DNA of 30,079 nucleotides from a virus (IMGVR_UViG_3300045988_012809:1-30079); one strand, 5' to 3'. Shown: positions 17,067 to 24,139, counted from the stretch's first letter. The notes: a model not told the origin generated them from the sequence alone. Program-made: numbers and translations.

Positions 17067-17207
17067 TTAATGTTCTGCTCCCCATAGTAGCACGATGCGG
17101 TACGTGTCCAAACCTTTGCAGTTCGGGCATTTCAACGTGACCGTGGTGTTGCGGGCGCAGGAGCCTAGGTAGCGTCCGCAACGTTTGCAATGGATGTCAT
17201 ATGTCAT
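17067..17207 (-). CDS. 46-aa Com-like zinc-ribbon protein (not in the ORF track)
   Basis: Hand translation: MTYDIHCKRCGRYLGSCARNTTVTLKCPNCKGLDTYRIVLLWGAEH. Contains two CxxC pairs. ATGA overlap with the portal stop. SD GAGGTGG. Confidence 0.55.
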   Translation of the reverse strand: MTYDIHCKRCGRYLGSCARNTTVTLKCPNCKGLDTYRIVLLWGAEH

Positions 17208-19291
17208 GATTCGACCACCTCGTAATCCTCATAGCACCGGCAGTTGGGGTGTCCGTTCGGTGTTTGCATACTCTCGAAGTTGTTCACGTAGGTTCTGCCG
17301 CCTATTTCTACGCTGGCGTTCTCAGCCATATACGTGTCATCCAATGCGATTCGATTGCCTTCCATGTGATTGCAGAATTCGCATACTTTTTCGTCGCCGC
17401 TGGTGCGCCAAACCTTGGCTAGTCGGATGCCGAGTGTTTCGCTGAGGTTGCGGGCGCTGTACAAGCTGCCGAGCCGTTGGGATTGCACAGTCTCACACCG
17501 GGCAATCAGTTCGGCGTGTTCGTTGCTCATGCGTTCGAGCGCTTCTCGGAGGTGTTCTGCGTCCCACTGGTCCACGTCGGCCCGGTTCAACAGTTCGAGC
17601 ACGTCGTCCGTAATGGTCTTGCTGGTGGACTTGGCGATGCTCCGCAAGTGTTCCACGTAGGCTTCACGCACGGTTGCGGGGAGTTCCGTCCAAAAGTAGA
17701 GTTGCCGCCAATCATCTGCGGTGTATCCCTCGATATTCACGGCGATGGAGCTTTCGGGGTGGACTTCAGCCCACATGGTAATGACCTGTTCCAGTTCGTA
17801 GCCGGTACGGCGTGCGTAGGCTGCGAGGTTGGTCATCAGTTCGTCTTCCACGTCGTTTATCCACTGGTCGCCGATGGCTTCCAGATCGTCGCGTAGCCCG
17901 TTCTTGGAGCGGCGTGCCATGCGGATTACGCGGTTCACGTAGGTGCGAGTGGCGGGGATGATACGGGTTTCGGTTGCCGTTTCCTGCGATTTGATATTAC
18001 GGCTATACCGTTTTGCGGCTACTGGGATACTTAGTGTCGGGGCCTGCTGGTGCAGGTCAAGACGCTTATACGAGTCGGGGAGTCCGAGCGCGTCCACGGC
18101 AGCCTCCAAACTGGCCCCCATGTTCAAAAGCTGGGTCAGCGAGTCGACACGTACCTTCTGTGTGTCGGCCTGCACCTTTGCTATGTCGGTTTGGGACGGC
18201 AGGTTGAGATCGAACGTGATGCCGTAGCCGAGTCCTCCGGTGATGCGGTCAAGTTCGAATTGCCATTTATCCCACACCGTCATGCACAACGGTTTAAGGG
18301 TGTTTTCAATGAACGCGCGTTCCGCCTGTTCGGCGTTGGCGTAGGTTTGCCCGTTATCGATGCCTCGAATGATGTCCGGGACTGCGAGCGCGTTCGACAG
18401 TCGGTTGTTTACCACGTCGTTCACGGTCTGCAAGTCTAGACTGTCGTTGGCGTTCTGGAACGGTACCCATACGAGTTTGCTGGTGGTGCTGGGCTTATGG
18501 GTCATGGGGTCAACCGGGATCATGTTATAGACGATTCCGTTGTTGTTGCCTGCACCTCGGAACGTGCTTTCGAGTCGGTCGCGGTTGCGCTGGAAGTCCT
18601 CAGTGTTTTCCGACACGATGCCGAGCATTCCAGCGGGTACGGCGTTGTTGCCGAAGAAGCCACGCTCATAGTCGGCGATCATATCGTCCACGTTCGCCCA
18701 CTTCTTCACCGTCATGGCTGGTGCGATGCCGCGCGTCGGGTCGTTGGGGTGCTGGCTGTAGCTGAGGGCGATTGTTTCGTTTCGGGAGAATTCGTAGGCT
18801 TGTTCGCCGTCGCCCAAGTCCATAGTGACGCGATGGTACCAGTCCGAGCGCGTGGAATTATACTGGCGACTGTTCGACGGTAGGAGCGTGTATCCGATGA
18901 TGTTCGTTGGGGTGATGTCTCCGCCCGGCCCGTTGCTTGTCCAGATCAGAACATCCAAGTGGGATTGGGTGAGGATGCTGGCGCAAACGATCTTGAGGAA
19001 CTCCAAGCACGAATAGGTGTCGTTGGGCGCGTAGAGTGCGGCCAGTGGTGCGGGGGGCGGGTCGATACGGCGGTTTTCTGAGTCCACGGCGTAGGGGATT
19101 ACCGTGCTGAACCTTTGCGCGATGGCGTTGACGTAGGGGAACACGTTGTCGTAAGTATCGTGCATGGGGATGGTGTTGCCGCCCATTGGCTGCCACATGT
19201 TCCCGCCCATTGGTGTGGGGGACGTGCTGGGCGCATGGTTACGGTCGAAAGCGCTCATAAACCCGTCACGGAGATTGTTCAGCAGGCTCAC
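17204..19291 (-). CDS. Portal protein fused to a MuF / SPP1 gp7-like minor head protein domain
   Basis: 695 aa, located directly after terL. The C-terminus KVCEFCNHMEGN...TPNGHPNCRCYEDYEV is the MuF-family signature. Confidence 0.85.
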   Translation of the reverse strand: MSLLNNLRDGFMSAFDRNHAPSTSPTPMGGNMWQPMGGNTIPMHDTYDNVFPYVNAIAQRFSTVIPYAVDSENRRIDPPPAPLAALYAPNDTYSCLEFLKIVCASILTQSHLDVLIWTSNGPGGDITPTNIIGYTLLPSNSRQYNSTRSDWYHRVTMDLGDGEQAYEFSRNETIALSYSQHPNDPTRGIAPAMTVKKWANVDDMIADYERGFFGNNAVPAGMLGIVSENTEDFQRNRDRLESTFRGAGNNNGIVYNMIPVDPMTHKPSTTSKLVWVPFQNANDSLDLQTVNDVVNNRLSNALAVPDIIRGIDNGQTYANAEQAERAFIENTLKPLCMTVWDKWQFELDRITGGLGYGITFDLNLPSQTDIAKVQADTQKVRVDSLTQLLNMGASLEAAVDALGLPDSYKRLDLHQQAPTLSIPVAAKRYSRNIKSQETATETRIIPATRTYVNRVIRMARRSKNGLRDDLEAIGDQWINDVEDELMTNLAAYARRTGYELEQVITMWAEVHPESSIAVNIEGYTADDWRQLYFWTELPATVREAYVEHLRSIAKSTSKTITDDVLELLNRADVDQWDAEHLREALERMSNEHAELIARCETVQSQRLGSLYSARNLSETLGIRLAKVWRTSGDEKVCEFCNHMEGNRIALDDTYMAENASVEIGGRTYVNNFESMQTPNGHPNCRCYEDYEVVES

Positions 19292-19349
19292 ATTTTCCTC
19301 GATTCATCTAAAACCCTATGTCTAGTCTACCGGGGTGCAGGGCCTAAAC

Positions 19350-20609
19350 CTAGCAAACGGATACGTCCCAAGATGGCAGCTTCGGCGGTTCGTAGCAGGC
19401 AAGCAATACGGCGTCCGCTAGATCGGGGCTGCCCAAGTTCTCCCGGTCTTTGTAATCCTGTTTGCTTTCTATCTGTCGTTGGTTCCTGCTGGTGATTTTC
19501 CACCGTCGCGTGGTCAATTCGCTTGAGAGCTTGACGAAGTCATCAAGATTAGGGTTGATGCTCAATGATGGCAGCATGGTAGCAAAGTCGAACCATAGTT
19601 CGCTGGCAATATTCGGATACTGTTGGTCTTTGGCCTTACCGGCGTAGTTGATGGCGTCAACGGGCAGGCCGTTTGTCTTGAGCAGGTCTGTTAATCCTCC
19701 GCCTACACCGGTATCGTCTACGCGGATGGCTACGGGCTTGTACTGGTCTGCCCGGAGTTTGATGCGTTCCGCCGTGTCCACGATACTGCTGTGCGTCCAC
19801 GATTCCAAGATGCTGATTCGGTTGCCCTGTTTGATGCAGAGCGCTGTGCGGTCGTTGCCGTATCGGGCCACGTCCACGCCGAACGTCACGAGCCCGGTCA
19901 ATGGTTTGCGTTGTACGGCTTCGTTTATCATGGTGTCGCTGATTAGCTGGTTATCAGTGTCGGAGTATGGCAAGCCTAGCCAGATGTGAGCATAGTCCGC
20001 TGACTGTTGGTCGGCGTGGATCATGTTCAACACGTCTTGGCTTAGCAGGCGGCGCACGTCGTTGTAGGTGGTGTGCCAGTGGCATGTCTGGCGGCGGCGT
20101 TCCTCCGAGTCGCCCGTGATGAAGTACGTCCATACGGGATCATGTGAAGTTAGCGGGTTCCAAGTGAAGATCAGCGTGGAATTGGGTCGGCGGATAGTCG
20201 GGATAAGCGTGGTCAGGCTTTCCTTGCTGATGGTCTGCGCTTCCTCGACCCAACACACGTCCACGCCCTCGATGCTCTTGATCGATTCCAGATTATTGTG
20301 CAGTCCTCGGAAGATGAACATGCTGCCGTTGATGTGGCGGATTGCGTCGCGCGTGACCTCGAACCCCTTGACTCCGAACGATTCAATGATGTCGGCCAGC
20401 AGCTTATGCACGGAGTCGGTGATACTGTTCTGGAATTCGCGGGCGCACAATACCGTGATGGGTTGGGTGGCGGCGCGGAGTATGAGACTCTGCGCGACGC
20501 TTGTACTTTTGCCGCTGGCTCGTCCACCGGAATAGCAGTAATACCGGTATGGTGGCGTCTCCGAGTGGAGCCACCACCATAAGTCACGGTACGGTTTAGC
20601 TATCTTCAT
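19350..20609 (-). CDS. terL: Terminase large subunit (Terminase_3 / PBSX-type)
   Basis: Walker A YSGGRASGKST, VCWVEEAQ (Walker B), and a C-terminal RNase-H-like nuclease region (VDVARYGNDRT...VDDTGVGGG). Confidence 0.9.
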   Translation of the reverse strand: MKIAKPYRDLWWWLHSETPPYRYYCYSGGRASGKSTSVAQSLILRAATQPITVLCAREFQNSITDSVHKLLADIIESFGVKGFEVTRDAIRHINGSMFIFRGLHNNLESIKSIEGVDVCWVEEAQTISKESLTTLIPTIRRPNSTLIFTWNPLTSHDPVWTYFITGDSEERRRQTCHWHTTYNDVRRLLSQDVLNMIHADQQSADYAHIWLGLPYSDTDNQLISDTMINEAVQRKPLTGLVTFGVDVARYGNDRTALCIKQGNRISILESWTHSSIVDTAERIKLRADQYKPVAIRVDDTGVGGGLTDLLKTNGLPVDAINYAGKAKDQQYPNIASELWFDFATMLPSLSINPNLDDFVKLSSELTTRRWKITSRNQRQIESKQDYKDRENLGSPDLADAVLLACYEPPKLPSWDVSVC

Positions 20610-21100
20610 CCGTGCTTCCTGATAACGAAACTGGCGGTCTTCACACGACGCGACGTTTTACTGAAATTAGGCTTGTGCTTACGTGCGATTTCTACCGCGC
20701 GCTTCTTGTGAAAAATGTTGATATTGTTCCGGGTTAGCTTCCAATCGTCGTGGTGCAGCAGTGCGTGTTTCATTGCAATGTTCGAGGTTTGCAGGAAGCA
20801 ATCATATTTGATGCTCACATGCTTGGCTACCGTTGTGGCCAGCAGTCTCCCGAGCCCGATCCCCTGCCAGTCCGGGTGAATGACAATCCGATGTATGCGA
20901 GCCATTGCAGTACCGTTACGTCTGGGCATGATGATTACCGCGCAGAAGCCGACAGCCTCCCCGCAGTATTTGACCTCCCAACATCGGGCGTTGTTCTGTA
21001 TCTTGCCTGTCAGATAATGATATCGCTTAAACTTTGCCCACTCGCTTCGGTCGCATCGTTCGACGGTGAACCGTCGTTGAGCGGGCTTGAACGTTTTGGG
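20606..21100 (-). CDS. GNAT acetyltransferase domain in the -1 frame relative to the ATPase; it has no start codon that would give a complete domain
   Basis: The frame is open from 21115 to 20606: FTVERCDRSEWAKFKRYHYL...RCWEVKYCGEAVGFCAVII...IHRIVIHPDWQGIGLGRLL (acetyl-CoA Q/RxxGxG motif). The only ATG (20929) has no SD and would truncate the fold. Confidence 0.6.
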   Translation of the reverse strand, partial: PKTFKPAQRRFTVERCDRSEWAKFKRYHYLTGKIQNNARCWEVKYCGEAVGFCAVIIMPRRNGTAMARIHRIVIHPDWQGIGLGRLLATTVAKHVSIKYDCFLQTSNIAMKHALLHHDDWKLTRNNINIFHKKRAVEIARKHKPNFSKTSRRVKTASFVIRKHG

Positions 21101-21720
21101 TCGATCATCCCCATATCATTCGTGGAATACACCCAATCGGGTTGCAACCAGTCGAGTATATCGGAATGGCAGGTTACCGCGATGAACCGGAGTCCGGACG
21201 TGCGTTTGATGTGCTTGTGCAATGCAAGGCAGAGGTTATAGGCCACGTTCCGGTCAACCACGCTGGTGAACTCGTCGTAGGCCACGGGATTATCAGGTGT
21301 CGCGGAAAGCAGTGTGTAGGCCAGATCGGCACGCATTTTCTCACCGTTGCTCAGCACCGTGTAGGGTTTCAGCCATGACGGGACGCTGGAGAAACCGAGC
21401 GAGGTGAACATTCGTGTTATCTCCCCGACCGTGGGGCCTTGGGGCATGTCCATTATCACGCTGGGATTACGATGCTCAGGCAGTGGGATGAGACAGTCGC
21501 CGAACAGTTCGCGGGCGATGGTAGTTTTCCCTGTTCCGCTGGCTCCGACAATGGCGCCTATCTGCCAACTGTCAGGCAGGATTATCTCCCCTGTGAAGTG
21601 TTCCGTTACCTCGGGAACTGTGTAATCGTAGTCGGAGCGTATGGCGTTAACACGGAAGTTGTCTACCGGCGGCGTACTACTCCGAGTAATATCAATCTTC
21701 AGATGGTGATGATCTTGCAC
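21010..21720 (-). CDS. Soluble ABC-type ATPase (no membrane domain)
   Basis: Walker A GASGTGKTT, ABC signature LSNGEKMR, Walker B VAYDEFTS, H-loop VTCHSD. GTG start with SD AGGAGGG at 6 nt. Confidence 0.8.
   Translation of the reverse strand: MQDHHHLKIDITRSSTPPVDNFRVNAIRSDYDYTVPEVTEHFTGEIILPDSWQIGAIVGASGTGKTTIARELFGDCLIPLPEHRNPSVIMDMPQGPTVGEITRMFTSLGFSSVPSWLKPYTVLSNGEKMRADLAYTLLSATPDNPVAYDEFTSVVDRNVAYNLCLALHKHIKRTSGLRFIAVTCHSDILDWLQPDWVYSTNDMGMIDPKRSSPLNDGSPSNDATEASGQSLSDIII
21094..21100 (-). promoter_or_regulatory. Candidate -1 ribosomal frameshift heptamer C_CCA_AAA
   Basis: The zero frame reads gaC CCA AAA cgt. A -1 slip reads CCC AAA ACG and continues into the GNAT frame. A 6-bp hairpin lies at 21061-21076, 17 nt downstream. 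Confidence 0.4.
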
Positions 21721-22253
21721 GAATATCCCTCCTGTACAAGCTTGTCGAACACGGTTTCGAGTTCGCTTTCATTGTCCACGTTGACTTGGATAGCGTGCTT
21801 ATCGTCGATATCGTTCAAACCTTCATCACTGTCATGGTCTTCCATGTCAAGAGATGGCAGGTCAAACCCATAGAAGTCCATATCGAAGTCAGTCGTGAGG
21901 TCTTCCAGTTCCACGTCGAGCATATCCGCGTCCCACCCGGTGTTCATGGTGAGCTGGTTGTGAATGAGGGTGTAGGCTCGGCGTTGCGAGTCGGTCAGAT
22001 CATCAAGACAGATTACCGGGCATTCCTCAATATTAAGTTTCTGCAAGGCGAGTACCCTGCCGTGGCCTTCCACGATGATCGGGGTACCGTCCTTGTCATG
22101 CCAGACGGCCACAGGGTCGTTCATACCGAACTCACGTATACTTGCGGCGATCTGTGCCACCTGCTCGTCGGGATGCTGTTTCGCGTTCCGAGCATAGGGA
22201 ATCAGGTCACTGGTCTTCATGGTTTGGACTTGCAAACGTGGTTTACTCATCAT
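21699..22253 (-). CDS. ParB N-terminal (ParB/Srx) nuclease-like domain protein
   Basis: LIPYARNAKQHPDEQVAQIAASIREFGMNDPVAV...IIVEGHGRVLALQKLNIEECPVICLDDLTDSQRRAYTLIHNQ is the classic ParBc pattern. Confidence 0.85.
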   Translation of the reverse strand: MMSKPRLQVQTMKTSDLIPYARNAKQHPDEQVAQIAASIREFGMNDPVAVWHDKDGTPIIVEGHGRVLALQKLNIEECPVICLDDLTDSQRRAYTLIHNQLTMNTGWDADMLDVELEDLTTDFDMDFYGFDLPSLDMEDHDSDEGLNDIDDKHAIQVNVDNESELETVFDKLVQEGYSCKIITI

Positions 22254-22639
22254 TCGCTATTCTTCTTGTTCTCGGGATTATCGTCGAACGGTTCCAACAC
22301 GATACGCGGCGGCTCGTAGCCGGTCACGTTCACATCGGTGGACTGGTGGGGTTTCCCGTCCAAACGGTCGATCAGATCGGTAGCGACTTTCGGGTTCTTC
22401 TCCGCGTCCACAATATGCTTGACCGCGATACGTTGGATCATGGTCAGACTGGGGTCTTTCGCTTTCTCAGCGAATTCTTTTGCGGATAGTTTCCCGTATT
22501 CGCGTATCCACCGGGTCGGGCTGGTGTCTTTAGTCCATGTGCCTCGGTCTTGCGGGCGTTCTTGGAAGCCGCCTTTGCCGGTTGGATTGTTGACGCCGCC
22601 GGTGATTCTGCCGTGGGTGTCTCGGGTTACGTTGCTCAT
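22250..22639 (-). CDS. terS: Terminase small subunit candidate
   Basis: Contains NPTGKGGFQERPQ and LIDRLDGKPHQS, motifs remembered from small-terminase families. It heads the packaging module. Confidence 0.55.
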   Translation of the reverse strand: MSNVTRDTHGRITGGVNNPTGKGGFQERPQDRGTWTKDTSPTRWIREYGKLSAKEFAEKAKDPSLTMIQRIAVKHIVDAEKNPKVATDLIDRLDGKPHQSTDVNVTGYEPPRIVLEPFDDNPENKKNSE

Positions 22640-22649
22640 AAGAGGTATT

Positions 22650-22805
22650 TTATGCTTTCTTGGGTTTAGTTTGGTGTTGGTGTTGGTTGATGATGGTTTG
22701 TATTTCTTCTGTGGTGGTGTTGAGTAGTTGGGCGATGTATTCGGGTTGGTAGTGTTTGCGGTGCCATTGGAGGGCTAGTTCGGTTTTTCGTTGGCTGATG
22801 GGCAT
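22650..22805 (-). CDS. 51-aa putative HTH peptide (not in the ORF track)
   Basis: Hand translation: MPISQRKTELALQWHRKHYQPEYIAQLLNTTTEEIQTIINQHQHQTKPKKA. SD AAGGA at 7 nt. Confidence 0.45.
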   Translation of the reverse strand: MPISQRKTELALQWHRKHYQPEYIAQLLNTTTEEIQTIINQHQHQTKPKKA

Positions 22806-22814
22806 GGTGGTTCC

Positions 22815-22976
22815 TTAGGCGAGGATGTAGGTTATGAGGAGTTTGAGTAGGGCGATGGTGCCGGTGGTGGTGAGTAGGGTGGTTAGGGTGATGAGTAGTC
22901 CGCCGAGGATGCGGCCTAGTTTGTAGCCGGGGGTTGTGGTGTTGCGGAAGTAGTCGAATTCGTTTGGTTTTTTCAT
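22815..22976 (-). CDS. 53-aa single-pass membrane peptide (not in the ORF track)
   Basis: Hand translation: MKKPNEFDYFRNTTTPGYKLGRILGGLLITLTTLLTTTGTIALLKLLITYILA. ATGA overlap with the RusA stop. Confidence 0.45.
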   Translation of the reverse strand: MKKPNEFDYFRNTTTPGYKLGRILGGLLITLTTLLTTTGTIALLKLLITYILA

Positions 22977-23902
22977 TGGTTCTTTTCCCATGTGATTGTG
23001 AGGGATACGCCGGTGGGGGTGTTGTCGGCGTATCGTTTGTGGCTGATTACGTTGGTGATCTGGCAGTCGTCATGCCAGATGTGGGTTTCGGTGATGGCGT
23101 CGTATAGGGCGCGTTGGAGTTTGTCGATGTCTGGTTTGACGGTGGGGTGTTTTCGTTTTCTTGGTGGGATGGTTTTGGGGCGGGGTAGGTAGAACGTGGT
23201 TTCTACGGTCACGTATGAGTCGTGGGGGATGGTGGGAGCCTGGTGGTTGAGGATGGTGTCGCGTACATGGTCGCGCCACGGGCGTTCTTTTTTGTCCATT
23301 GGTATGAGGCGGGTGACTGGTTTGCCGGTGGTGCGGCTCCTGCCGGTGATTGGACGGTAGGAGCCTTTACTTGCGGGTATGCCGGGGATGAACAGTTTGA
23401 ACGAGGATGGTTTGCTGGTTATTGGTTGATCTCCTTCTAGTGTTTGACTCACGGTCGGGTCGTAACTCCAGTCAAGTCGTACAGGCACAGGATTGTGCCA
23501 CGTGTTTTCCGTTGTCTTTCCTTGTATTGTCTTGACTGTGAGTCGTATGGCGTTGTGGTATTCGGTTCTTGACGCGCAGTCAGAATCCCGTTGAGGGTAG
23601 GGGTCGGGTTTCAACGCCTCGTAGGACGTTTTCGTCCCGGCTTTGGTCTCGGCGTCCGTGGGTGGCGTGTTGCGGTCGCGCAGGTGCGGTGGGTCGAGCA
23701 TGATCATGCGGAACGTCTCGTCAGGGGATGGCAGGTCGCGGTGGTCCATCAGCGTGTCCGGCTTGACCTTGAATCTGCGTTCGTCACATAGTTTCCGACT
23801 TTCGTCGCGCATGTCACCGGAGAGTATACGGTTGTCTGACTTGTCGGAATAGAATATTCGTCCGCCGCAGGCTGGGTCGGGAACAGGTTGGTATGCGCTC
23901 AT
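22973..23902 (-). CDS. rusA: Fusion ORF: N-terminal fragment of a small SAM-dependent methyltransferase (ends at DPPH) plus a C-terminal RusA Holliday-junction resolvase
   Basis: N-terminus: ACGGRIFYSDKSDN...KVKPDTLMDHRDLPSPDETFRMIMLDPPHL. C-terminus: FKLFIPGIPASKGSYRP...TVKPDIDKLQRALYDAIT...IWHDDCQITNVISHKRYA (RusA motifs). Confidence 0.75.
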   Translation of the reverse strand: MSAYQPVPDPACGGRIFYSDKSDNRILSGDMRDESRKLCDERRFKVKPDTLMDHRDLPSPDETFRMIMLDPPHLRDRNTPPTDAETKAGTKTSYEALKPDPYPQRDSDCASRTEYHNAIRLTVKTIQGKTTENTWHNPVPVRLDWSYDPTVSQTLEGDQPITSKPSSFKLFIPGIPASKGSYRPITGRSRTTGKPVTRLIPMDKKERPWRDHVRDTILNHQAPTIPHDSYVTVETTFYLPRPKTIPPRKRKHPTVKPDIDKLQRALYDAITETHIWHDDCQITNVISHKRYADNTPTGVSLTITWEKNQ

Positions 23903-24139
23903 TTATCTTCGTTTCGTTGTTCCTAGTTTTTTGCTGTTGCTCATGTTTATGCCGCCCCAGATGCCTTGCAATGGGTAGCTGTTTATCACGGCATGTTTCG
24001 CAGCATATCGTTTGCATTCGTGTATCACCGGGCATGTGGAGCAGGCTTTAAGGGCTAATCGTTCCTCAATCCGTGTGGTTGGGAAAAACAGGTCAGGGTC
24101 CATGTCACGGCAAACGGCCTTGTTGCGCCAGTCGCTCAA
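23903..24139 (-). CDS. whiB: WhiB-family Fe-S transcription factor
   Basis: Four Cys (C10, C33, C36, C42), DPDLFFP, CSTCPVIHEC and GIWGG. Confidence 0.9.
   Translation of the reverse strand: MSDWRNKAVCRDMDPDLFFPTTRIEERLALKACSTCPVIHECKRYAAKHAVINSYPLQGIWGGINMSNSKKLGTTKRR

Follow-up and report, generated by a model that had tools for sequence, protein, structure and literature searches.

Programmed –1 frameshifting in dnaX, from which the tau and gamma proteins are made, and in other bacterial and phage genes depends on a slippery heptamer that a short spacer separates from a stem further downstream (passages of PMC5009743; PMC4066793), and yields two products that share their N-terminus in a fixed ratio (PMC5009743). 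Among phage DNA-modifying systems, the thymine dioxygenases require a short phage ParB protein to act on double-stranded DNA (PMC13229309), and the GNAT-fold enzyme Mom of phage Mu acylates adenine in double-stranded DNA by using Gly-tRNA (PMC13219725). Furthermore, a GNAT acetyltransferase coupled to an ABC-type ATPase has been predicted to carry out an uncharacterised acyl modification of a DNA base; a passage of PMC7824862 credits this prediction to Iyer et al. 2013 and gives Tenacibaculum phage pT24 as the example. Here, we describe a locus of a 30,079-nt viral sequence (IMGVR_UViG_3300045988_012809:1-30079; the whole stretch is called the window below) in which a ParB-like gene and an ABC-ATPase/GNAT gene lie between the putative small (terS) and the large (terL) terminase subunit genes, and in which the two domains of the second gene are probably joined by a –1 frameshift. 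Coordinates follow the plus strand of the whole window, and all of the genes of the region lie on the minus strand.

Compared with the predicted ParB-associated module, as outlined in that passage of PMC7824862 and as represented by the family phrog_11143, the window carries the same two domains in the same order, with the same motifs and likewise next to a ParB gene, and a tblastn search with the window protein also retrieves phage pT24 (H21). Two differences are evident: in the window and its closest relatives (the window clade) the domains are encoded in different frames, so that a –1 shift is needed to join them, and the module stands between the terS-position gene and terL, instead of upstream of terS as is usual elsewhere. 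With dnaX and similar genes the locus shares the heptamer and the short spacer and, as predicted, the downstream stem and the production of two proteins with a common N-terminus, but the gene family is different and the shift in the window would yield the longer product.

The original prediction read this region as a trio of tightly coupled genes, encoding a ParB nuclease, a soluble ABC-ATPase and a GNAT acetyltransferase, wedged between terS and terL. Its coordinates and overlaps are exact on the gene calls: the 3′ end of the ParB-like gene (21699–22253, 184 aa) overlaps the start of the ATPase open reading frame (ORF; 21010–21720, 236 aa) by 22 nt, and the stop codon of the GNAT ORF (20606–20929, 107 aa, bounded by a start codon and recognised by GNAT motif A) overlaps the start of terL (19350–20609) by 4 nt (ATGA). 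The same 4-nt overlap (ATGA) links the stop of the putative terS (22250–22639) to the start of the ParB-like gene. The motifs reported as intact are all present, namely Walker A (GASGTGKT), the signature (LSNGEK), Walker B (VAYDEF), the H-loop (CHSD) and the acetyl-CoA-binding GNAT motif A (QGIGLG), and they fall on invariant columns in the alignment of the window protein with fused homologues. What did not hold is the count of three genes. As judged from the alignments, the ATPase and GNAT ORFs are two halves of one gene, which is fused in most relatives, and the module thus consists of two genes. Nor are the two ORFs tightly coupled, as 81 nt (20930–21009) separate the ATPase stop from the GNAT ORF, which lacks the N-terminal third of its domain.

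This missing part is encoded in the –1 frame, overlapping the 3′ end of the ATPase ORF, an arrangement that had been overlooked in the first reading of the locus. The GNAT frame is open from 21115, inside the ATPase ORF, and between 21115 and 20929 it contains no ATG, GTG or TTG; the family-invariant residues F231, H235 and Y236 (F..HY) fall within this stretch devoid of start codons. When ATPase residues 1–209 are joined, by a step back at C_CCA_AAA, to the –1-frame segment at 20606–21094 (162 aa plus stop, comprising the linker and the whole GNAT domain), a 371-aa ATPase-GNAT protein is obtained. Standard decoding gives instead a 236-aa ATPase-only product with a 27-aa tail.

Several lines of comparison support the 371-aa reconstruction. 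In the PHROGs database both ORFs are covered by the single 357-position profile of phrog_11143, listed with ‘unknown function’, of which positions 11–192 match the ATPase ORF (1.5e-51) and positions 253–344 the GNAT ORF. The reconstructed protein has more than 7000 homologues (protein clusters), nearly all of 350–380 aa and carrying ABC_tran and Acetyltransf, and 39 fused homologues can be aligned with it over its full length (40–45% identity). Its AlphaFold2 model, built on the homologue alignment, reached a predicted local distance difference test score (pLDDT) of 88 and a predicted template-modelling score of 0.79, and it ends directly after the GNAT domain. Foldseek searches of the PDB matched the model to nucleotide-binding domains (NBDs) of the ABC-transporter type and to GNAT folds, the ATPase half finding the NBDs of CysA, MalK, Wzt and MacB, in line with the matches of its sequence profile to PDB ABC NBDs. 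Among viral models, a full-length protein of Leptospira phage LE4 was matched with a template-modelling (TM) score of 0.80. Pfam recognised ParB_N (E 3e-6) in the ParB-like protein, with ABC_tran and GNAT matches below the curated cut-offs, and NCBIfam gave only sub-threshold transporter and RimI matches. The parallel drawn in the original prediction, to a fusion of an ABC-type ATPase with an acetyltransferase, was right in substance, since members of the family are natively single polypeptides. A literature search for COG2401 found nothing.

The –1 relation between the two halves is conserved well beyond the window. The nearest database proteins (92, 91, 70 and 59% identity) are all truncated at the same place, and their contigs likewise have the GNAT half in the –1 frame, preceded by GAC CCA AAA. 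All 16 members of the window clade, down to 59% identity, have the –1 relation at the same site. Among 80 IMG/VR loci, the 12 close relatives are all split at –1 and the 68 distant ones all fused; when 80 genome loci and three GenBank phages were added, the split loci became 24, each of them at –1 and none at +1. These include Lactococcus phage P335, Streptococcus pyogenes prophage 315.4 and an Oenococcus phage, whose loci are annotated in GenBank as ‘ABC transporter’ plus ‘hypothetical protein’, an annotation error where one enzyme stands. In a neighbour-joining tree the window clade groups with phages of Lactococcus, Streptococcus, Oenococcus and Lachnospiraceae in one wholly split clade, which indicates that the split arrangement is old.

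Selection follows the same pattern. In 13 pairs, the ratio of nonsynonymous to synonymous changes (pN/pS) within the overlap was 0.8–1.9 in the ATPase (0) frame, whose 27-aa tail is unselected, but 0.2–0.5 in the GNAT (–1) frame, where selection is purifying. The segment running from the 0-frame stop to the first possible start codon of the window is under purifying selection too. Another explanation of the split is that there is no recoding at all and the locus is a decaying pseudogene, an assembly error, or a pair of genes whose GNAT part is re-initiated at an internal codon. Gene callers and GenBank annotators do list two ORFs, some independent splits (L113, L131 and L154) lie in A9–A10 homopolymers, which are prone to sequencing error, and one relative of P335 shows a +1 relation. 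Nevertheless, this explanation appears improbable: the –1 stretch upstream of any start codon holds family-invariant residues under purifying selection, the ATG at 20929 is not kept even in 92%-identical relatives, frame and position are the same in the 16 clade members, which come from different samples, and a scan of P335 relatives placed 29 of 31 at –1, independently sequenced cultured phages included. The relative with the +1 relation (L191; IMG/VR_UViG_3300037400_002120) is the sole one, its stem is mismatched (GCCAC/GUGGA), and either decay of the copy or misassembly may account for it. On the sequence evidence, the GNAT half is thus probably expressed through a frameshift.

The candidate slip site is the heptamer C_CCA_AAA at 21094–21100, which is in phase with the ATPase frame and fits X_XXY_YYZ; it is found in 15 of the 16 clade members, the remaining one (L014) having C_CUA_AAA instead, and we infer that the ribosome shifts here. 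After a spacer of 7 nt comes a predicted stimulatory stem-loop (21036–21086), whose 8-bp outer stem pairs GCCCGCUC (21079–21086) with GAGUGGGC (21036–21043) and encloses an inner hairpin (21061–21076). The 60-nt segment has a minimum free energy of –25.3 kcal/mol, while 200 shuffled sequences average –17.0 (z = –2.9), none of them being as stable. Over 13 clade sequences the outer helix is 96% paired, and every change in it is one-sided. In the P335 clade and in other split lineages an equivalent stem is present and contains covarying pairs: CCCCCAC/GUGGGGG in the P335 group, GCCCAC/GUGGGC in others and GCCAC/GUGGC in L188. The 3′ strand of the stem always lies on conserved Glu-Trp codons, and the 5′ strand changes along with it. 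Among 32 unique split genes, 28–29 show a slip motif 5–6 nt upstream of the stem, either a heptamer in frame (C_CCA_AAA or U_UUU_UUU) or the tetramer U_UUU, the P335 site reading G_GUU_UUU, and an excess of complementarity over shuffled controls is limited to the split genes (–13.3 vs –8.6 kcal/mol), with none in the fused ones. Heptamer and tetramer motifs of these sites are among those that shift in Escherichia coli (PMC4066793). This recurrence of slip site, spacer and stem across lineages also argues against the pseudogene and two-gene explanations.

Some observations weigh against this interpretation. Within the window clade the stem has no two-sided compensatory change, the Oenococcus phage (L086) and L197 have no convincing stem, and among the six tetramers that proved active in E. 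coli, A_AAA was the weakest (PMC4066793). Furthermore, the loci are phylogenetically related, so that counts such as 16 of 16 or 24 of 24 overstate the number of independent observations. Other candidate signals were rejected. Transcriptional slippage can be set aside in the window, whose A-run is only 4 nt long; a Shine-Dalgarno-like GGGGA upstream of the heptamer, considered as a stimulator, is not conserved in relatives of the L001 type; and for L104 the slip site A_AAA_AAC was abandoned in favour of U_UUU_UUU, 5 nt upstream of the stem, which fits the common architecture better.

A different signal is found at the same linker in fused homologues. Exactly ten A residues (A10) occur there in 69 of 142 fused genes, and 59 unique A10 genes, whose proteins may be as little as 40% identical, all have the codons CAA AAA AAA AAT, with a third-position entropy of zero against 0.9–1.6 in the flanking codons. 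A –1-frame stop, usually TAG, directly follows the A10 run in 61 of 70 genes. GC-rich members, e.g. those of Planctomycetota, have no A10 tract. In A10 genes a –1 slip, or an extra A introduced during transcription, would lead to an ATPase-only product in a dnaX-like manner; the dnaX shift also ends at an immediate stop, which the A10-plus-TAG arrangement mimics, and transcriptional slippage is possible in these homologues. The split and A10 layouts would therefore be mirror images predicting the same two isoforms, with the shift making the long form in the former and the short form in the latter, and the sites are likely to form a new family of recoding sites. In four fused IMG/VR genes of 47–49% GC (L022, L027, L030 and L032) A10 is present but the stop in the –1 frame is missing. 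Across the GNAT region of L022 this frame runs through 153 codons uninterrupted, and one more A10 gene likewise has 153 open codons.

No earlier report appears to exist of this frameshift-dependent layout or of the wider recoding signal at the linker: neither in the literature searched nor in passages of the recoding review (PMC5009743) is a frameshift described in an ABC-ATPase, GNAT or ParB-linked gene. A broader joint reading can be put forward tentatively and is more doubtful than probable. It holds that recoding signals set the ratio of ATPase-only to ATPase-GNAT protein throughout the family, by an obligatory –1 shift in phages of Gram-positive bacteria and by A10 plus a –1-frame stop in many low-GC phages, and that the ParB-partnered enzyme installs an undescribed acylation on DNA bases before packaging.

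The ParB-like gene of the module is almost constantly present. A ParB-like ORF of about 170–190 aa directly precedes the ATPase-GNAT gene in 148 of the 155 loci with enough sequence, normally beside terminase genes, and in five further loci it lies within 670 nt; moreover, in three cluster representatives (P0161, P0192 and P0212) ParB, ATPase and GNAT are fused in a single polypeptide. The window ParB matches phrog_620 (2e-47), and its AlphaFold2 model (pLDDT 81) resembles, in Foldseek, the CTP-binding domain of ParB, Noc, PadC and KorB over only ~95–120 residues, with root-mean-square deviations of 1.7–2.4 Å over about 95 residues to 7bnr, 6sdk and 7nfu. The helix-turn-helix centromere-binding domain was not found in the protein, the structural matches ending at ~95–120 residues, and in Pfam and NCBIfam only the ParB N-terminal domain was matched, full-length models staying below the curated cut-offs. 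The protein therefore consists of the nucleotide-binding N-terminal domain followed by a short C-terminal domain, and shares with the ParB of chromosome partition, a CTPase clamp, the N-terminal fold but not the central helix-turn-helix. Its description as a nuclease finds no support, this N-terminal domain of the ParB/Noc/KorB type being all that is recognisable. On the other hand, the view that its slot usually belongs to ParB-linked methyltransferases agrees with its closest sequence matches, which are the N-terminal parts of phage DNA methyltransferases (phrog_498, 1e-44; PADLOC MTase_II, 3e-33). One homologue (P0223) has the ATPase-GNAT protein fused to a methyltransferase domain.

A similar partnership is found in the ParB-dependent thymine dioxygenases (PMC13229309), in which a short phage ParB, likewise made of nucleotide-binding and C-terminal domains with no obvious DNA-binding domain, has a DNA-modifying enzyme as its neighbour, frequently close to the terminase genes. 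The partner there is a dioxygenase dependent on iron and 2-oxoglutarate, while in the window it would be the ATPase-GNAT protein. Mom provides a precedent for the chemistry, as a GNAT-fold phage enzyme that acylates a base of double-stranded DNA late in infection (PMC13219725); no sequence similarity to it was detected, and Mom has neither an ATPase nor a ParB partner and uses Gly-tRNA rather than a coenzyme A (CoA) thioester.

Taken together, the locus is best explained, with a probability of roughly 0.55, as a mobile two-gene module that combines a recoded ATPase-GNAT enzyme with ParB and serves the acylation of phage DNA. Normal decoding would end at 21010 and give the 236-aa ATPase-only protein; a –1 slip on C_CCA_AAA, probably promoted by the stem-loop, would give the full 371-aa enzyme; and the slip site would thus fix the ratio of the two isoforms. 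As ABC ATPase domains act as dimers, mixed ATPase/ATPase-GNAT dimers are conceivable, which is speculation. By analogy with ParB-linked methyltransferases and the thymine dioxygenases, ParB may recruit or activate the enzyme on double-stranded phage DNA, with the ATPase driving binding or turnover and the GNAT domain moving an acyl group onto a base prior to packaging, so that the DNA would be protected from host nucleases. The acyl donor would most simply be acetyl-CoA, because the CoA-binding motif QGIGLG is intact. That DNA is the target of such a ParB-assisted, ATP-dependent acylation is, on these analogies, an evenly balanced proposition. If true, it would represent new chemistry among phage DNA modifications, and the thymine dioxygenases would be joined by a second kind of DNA-modifying enzyme that acts with a ParB-fold partner. 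The original prediction had proposed a nucleic-acid-directed acetylation or anti-defence module; this agrees with the DNA-acylation prediction in the passage of PMC7824862. A known defence system is not supported, PADLOC giving only weak ABC-type matches. The observation on which it was built is in part confirmed and its interpretation in part supported.

Against DNA acylation it has to be considered that, on adenine N6, simple acyl groups reportedly lack chemical stability (PMC13219725), that none of the phages with the module is known to have a modified base and a search of the literature found no biochemical or mass-spectrometric data on the substrate, and that the ATPase resembles, in Foldseek, transporter-type NBDs and not the DNA-handling Rad50, SMC and RecF types. 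No permease or transmembrane partner was found in the window region or among conserved neighbours at related loci. The GNAT half, for its part, has only weak generic matches (RimI 0.0026, diamine acetyltransferase 0.0023, Naa60 by fold), which would suit a protein or small-molecule substrate equally well. It is on this ground that the enzyme might instead acetylate a protein, in host takeover or anti-defence or on a phage packaging protein, with ParB and the ATPase forming a nucleotide-controlled switch. The nearest named GNAT matches, including Naa60 and other N-acetyltransferases, do act on proteins or small molecules; in Porphyromonas phage records the gene is labelled ‘acr candidate’; ParB-fold/acetyltransferase fusions, which have been surveyed and one of which binds GTP, bind nucleoside triphosphates with no known role in DNA (PMC12704722); and phage GNATs that acetylate host RNA polymerase exist (PMC7824862). 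We regard a protein target as unlikely, though deserving attention, since the near-obligate ParB partner belongs to the subfamily fused to phage DNA methyltransferases, one relative (P0223) is itself joined to a methyltransferase domain, and the terminase-adjacent position is constant in bacterial and possibly archaeal viruses.

An RNA target, either through an ATP-dependent acetyltransferase like TmcA/NAT10 or through the use of charged tRNA as acyl donor in the manner of Mom, is less probable still. TmcA/NAT10 combines a P-loop ATPase and a GNAT in one polypeptide and acts on a nucleic-acid base, TmcA (2zpa) is among the whole-length Foldseek matches, a faint sequence match to NAT10 exists (E 0.55), and Mom does use Gly-tRNA (PMC13219725). 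However, the TM-score to TmcA (2zpa) is only 0.30, TmcA has a helicase-like ATPase in the place of the ABC NBD, and both DUF1726 and the tRNA-binding domain are absent here, nothing following the GNAT domain, so that the likeness to TmcA suggested by the original prediction holds as an analogy and no further. Three relatives (L001, L013 and L014) have tRNA genes directly downstream of GNAT; these genes are limited to one subclade and the window has none, and an RNA target would leave the linkage with ParB unexplained. In this 70%-identity subclade the tRNA genes (L001:4211-4554, L013:4129-4427 and L014:6210-6680) occupy a region of ~1.1 kb between the GNAT stop and terL, with tRNA-Ser(GCU), tRNA-Gln(UUG) and a further, atypical tRNA-like gene for which an anticodon of two bases was called.

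The position of the module between terS and terL can be traced to an insertion. The terS-position gene encodes 129 aa and shows 36% identity (E 7e-22) to the 132-aa ORF that immediately precedes terL in Bifidobacterium phage BlindUri1, the nearest cultured relative, whose TerL is 51% identical to that of the window (Pfam Terminase_3, 1.5e-38). In BlindUri1 this gene abuts terL with nothing between them, which confirms that the module is wedged between the two genes in the window and, by this comparison of sequences, is a real insertion. Identification of the 129-aa ORF as the small terminase subunit is putative and follows from position and homology: no Pfam, PHROG or NCBIfam family matched it and the PDB sequence search gave noise, while a comparison with the small ORFs found between module and terL in other phages reached an hhalign probability of 91%. 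Over the family, 67 out of the 84 viral loci have a terL-like gene downstream of the module, in most cases with a small terS-like ORF in between; a planctomycete locus has a terminase-like gene and a lambda-type portal gene downstream, and for an archaeal locus the evidence is weaker.

That widely differing viruses keep the module beside terS, terL and the portal gene, and that the window module is translationally coupled to both terS and terL, might suggest a packaging accessory, in which ParB and the ATPase help the terminase to recognise or process the packaging site and the GNAT is secondary. Such a role is very improbable, however, since BlindUri1 packages its DNA with no module, the catalytic and CoA motifs of the GNAT are invariant across the family, and ParB-methyltransferase genes share this position with no packaging role known. 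A ParB-partnered enzyme of DNA acylation thus remains the preferred reading of the module.

Members of the family occur in 61 phage records of GenBank, in over 550 stretches of IMG/VR and in the more than 7000 protein clusters mentioned above. Carriers include Lactococcus P335, S. pyogenes prophages, phages of Oenococcus, Gordonia (Jace and Sisko) and Arthrobacter (EastWest), Leptospira LE3 and LE4, and Burkholderia phiE255, so that the module is present in thousands of phages and prophages, cultured and tractable ones among them, and its product has never been studied. That no characterised system has this architecture, as originally stated, holds for the literature searched; the architecture itself is common, and profile searches assign it to a known family that is uncharacterised. 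Within the family, P0259 (755 aa) seems, by eye only, to contain an intein-like insertion, ‘CADEATEILT…’ following ‘RPYGTL’ where LSNGE is expected. Three ParB plus ATPase-GNAT loci (L095, L096 and L097) lie on one archaeal chromosome, the Methanoregulaceae metagenome-assembled genome OY969564.1, and additional ATPase-GNAT-like ORFs may be present downstream of the first in L097.

The host of the virus is likely a Bifidobacterium, on the basis of the similarity of its TerL to those of Bifidobacterium phages; the genome collection contains no member of the window's own clade and so offers no prophage-based reading of the host. An actinobacterial host is also indicated by the TerL similarity to phages of Bifidobacterium asteroides, from the honeybee gut, together with a small Cys-rich WhiB-like ORF at 23903–24139, whose counterpart in one relative (L003) matches Pfam Whib. 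At the DNA level, a search of the region against GenBank phages gave no match, and an Rfam scan of 19000–23500 found nothing. Downstream of terL, a single 695-aa ORF (17204–19291) combines a portal protein (Phage_portal, 3e-21) with a Mu F-like head-morphogenesis domain (Phage_Mu_F, 1e-8; both Pfam), a fusion also present in the relatives L001 and L003. Upstream of terS, the plus strand of the window between 22001 and 24000 has an AT skew of –0.37 to –0.41 and a GC skew of +0.21 to +0.28, coinciding with a stretch rich in A and C on the minus strand. The skew also coincides with a 309-aa ORF (22973–23902) with a low-complexity N-terminal half and a RusA-like resolvase as its C-terminal half; in relatives the RusA ORF is 149 aa long.

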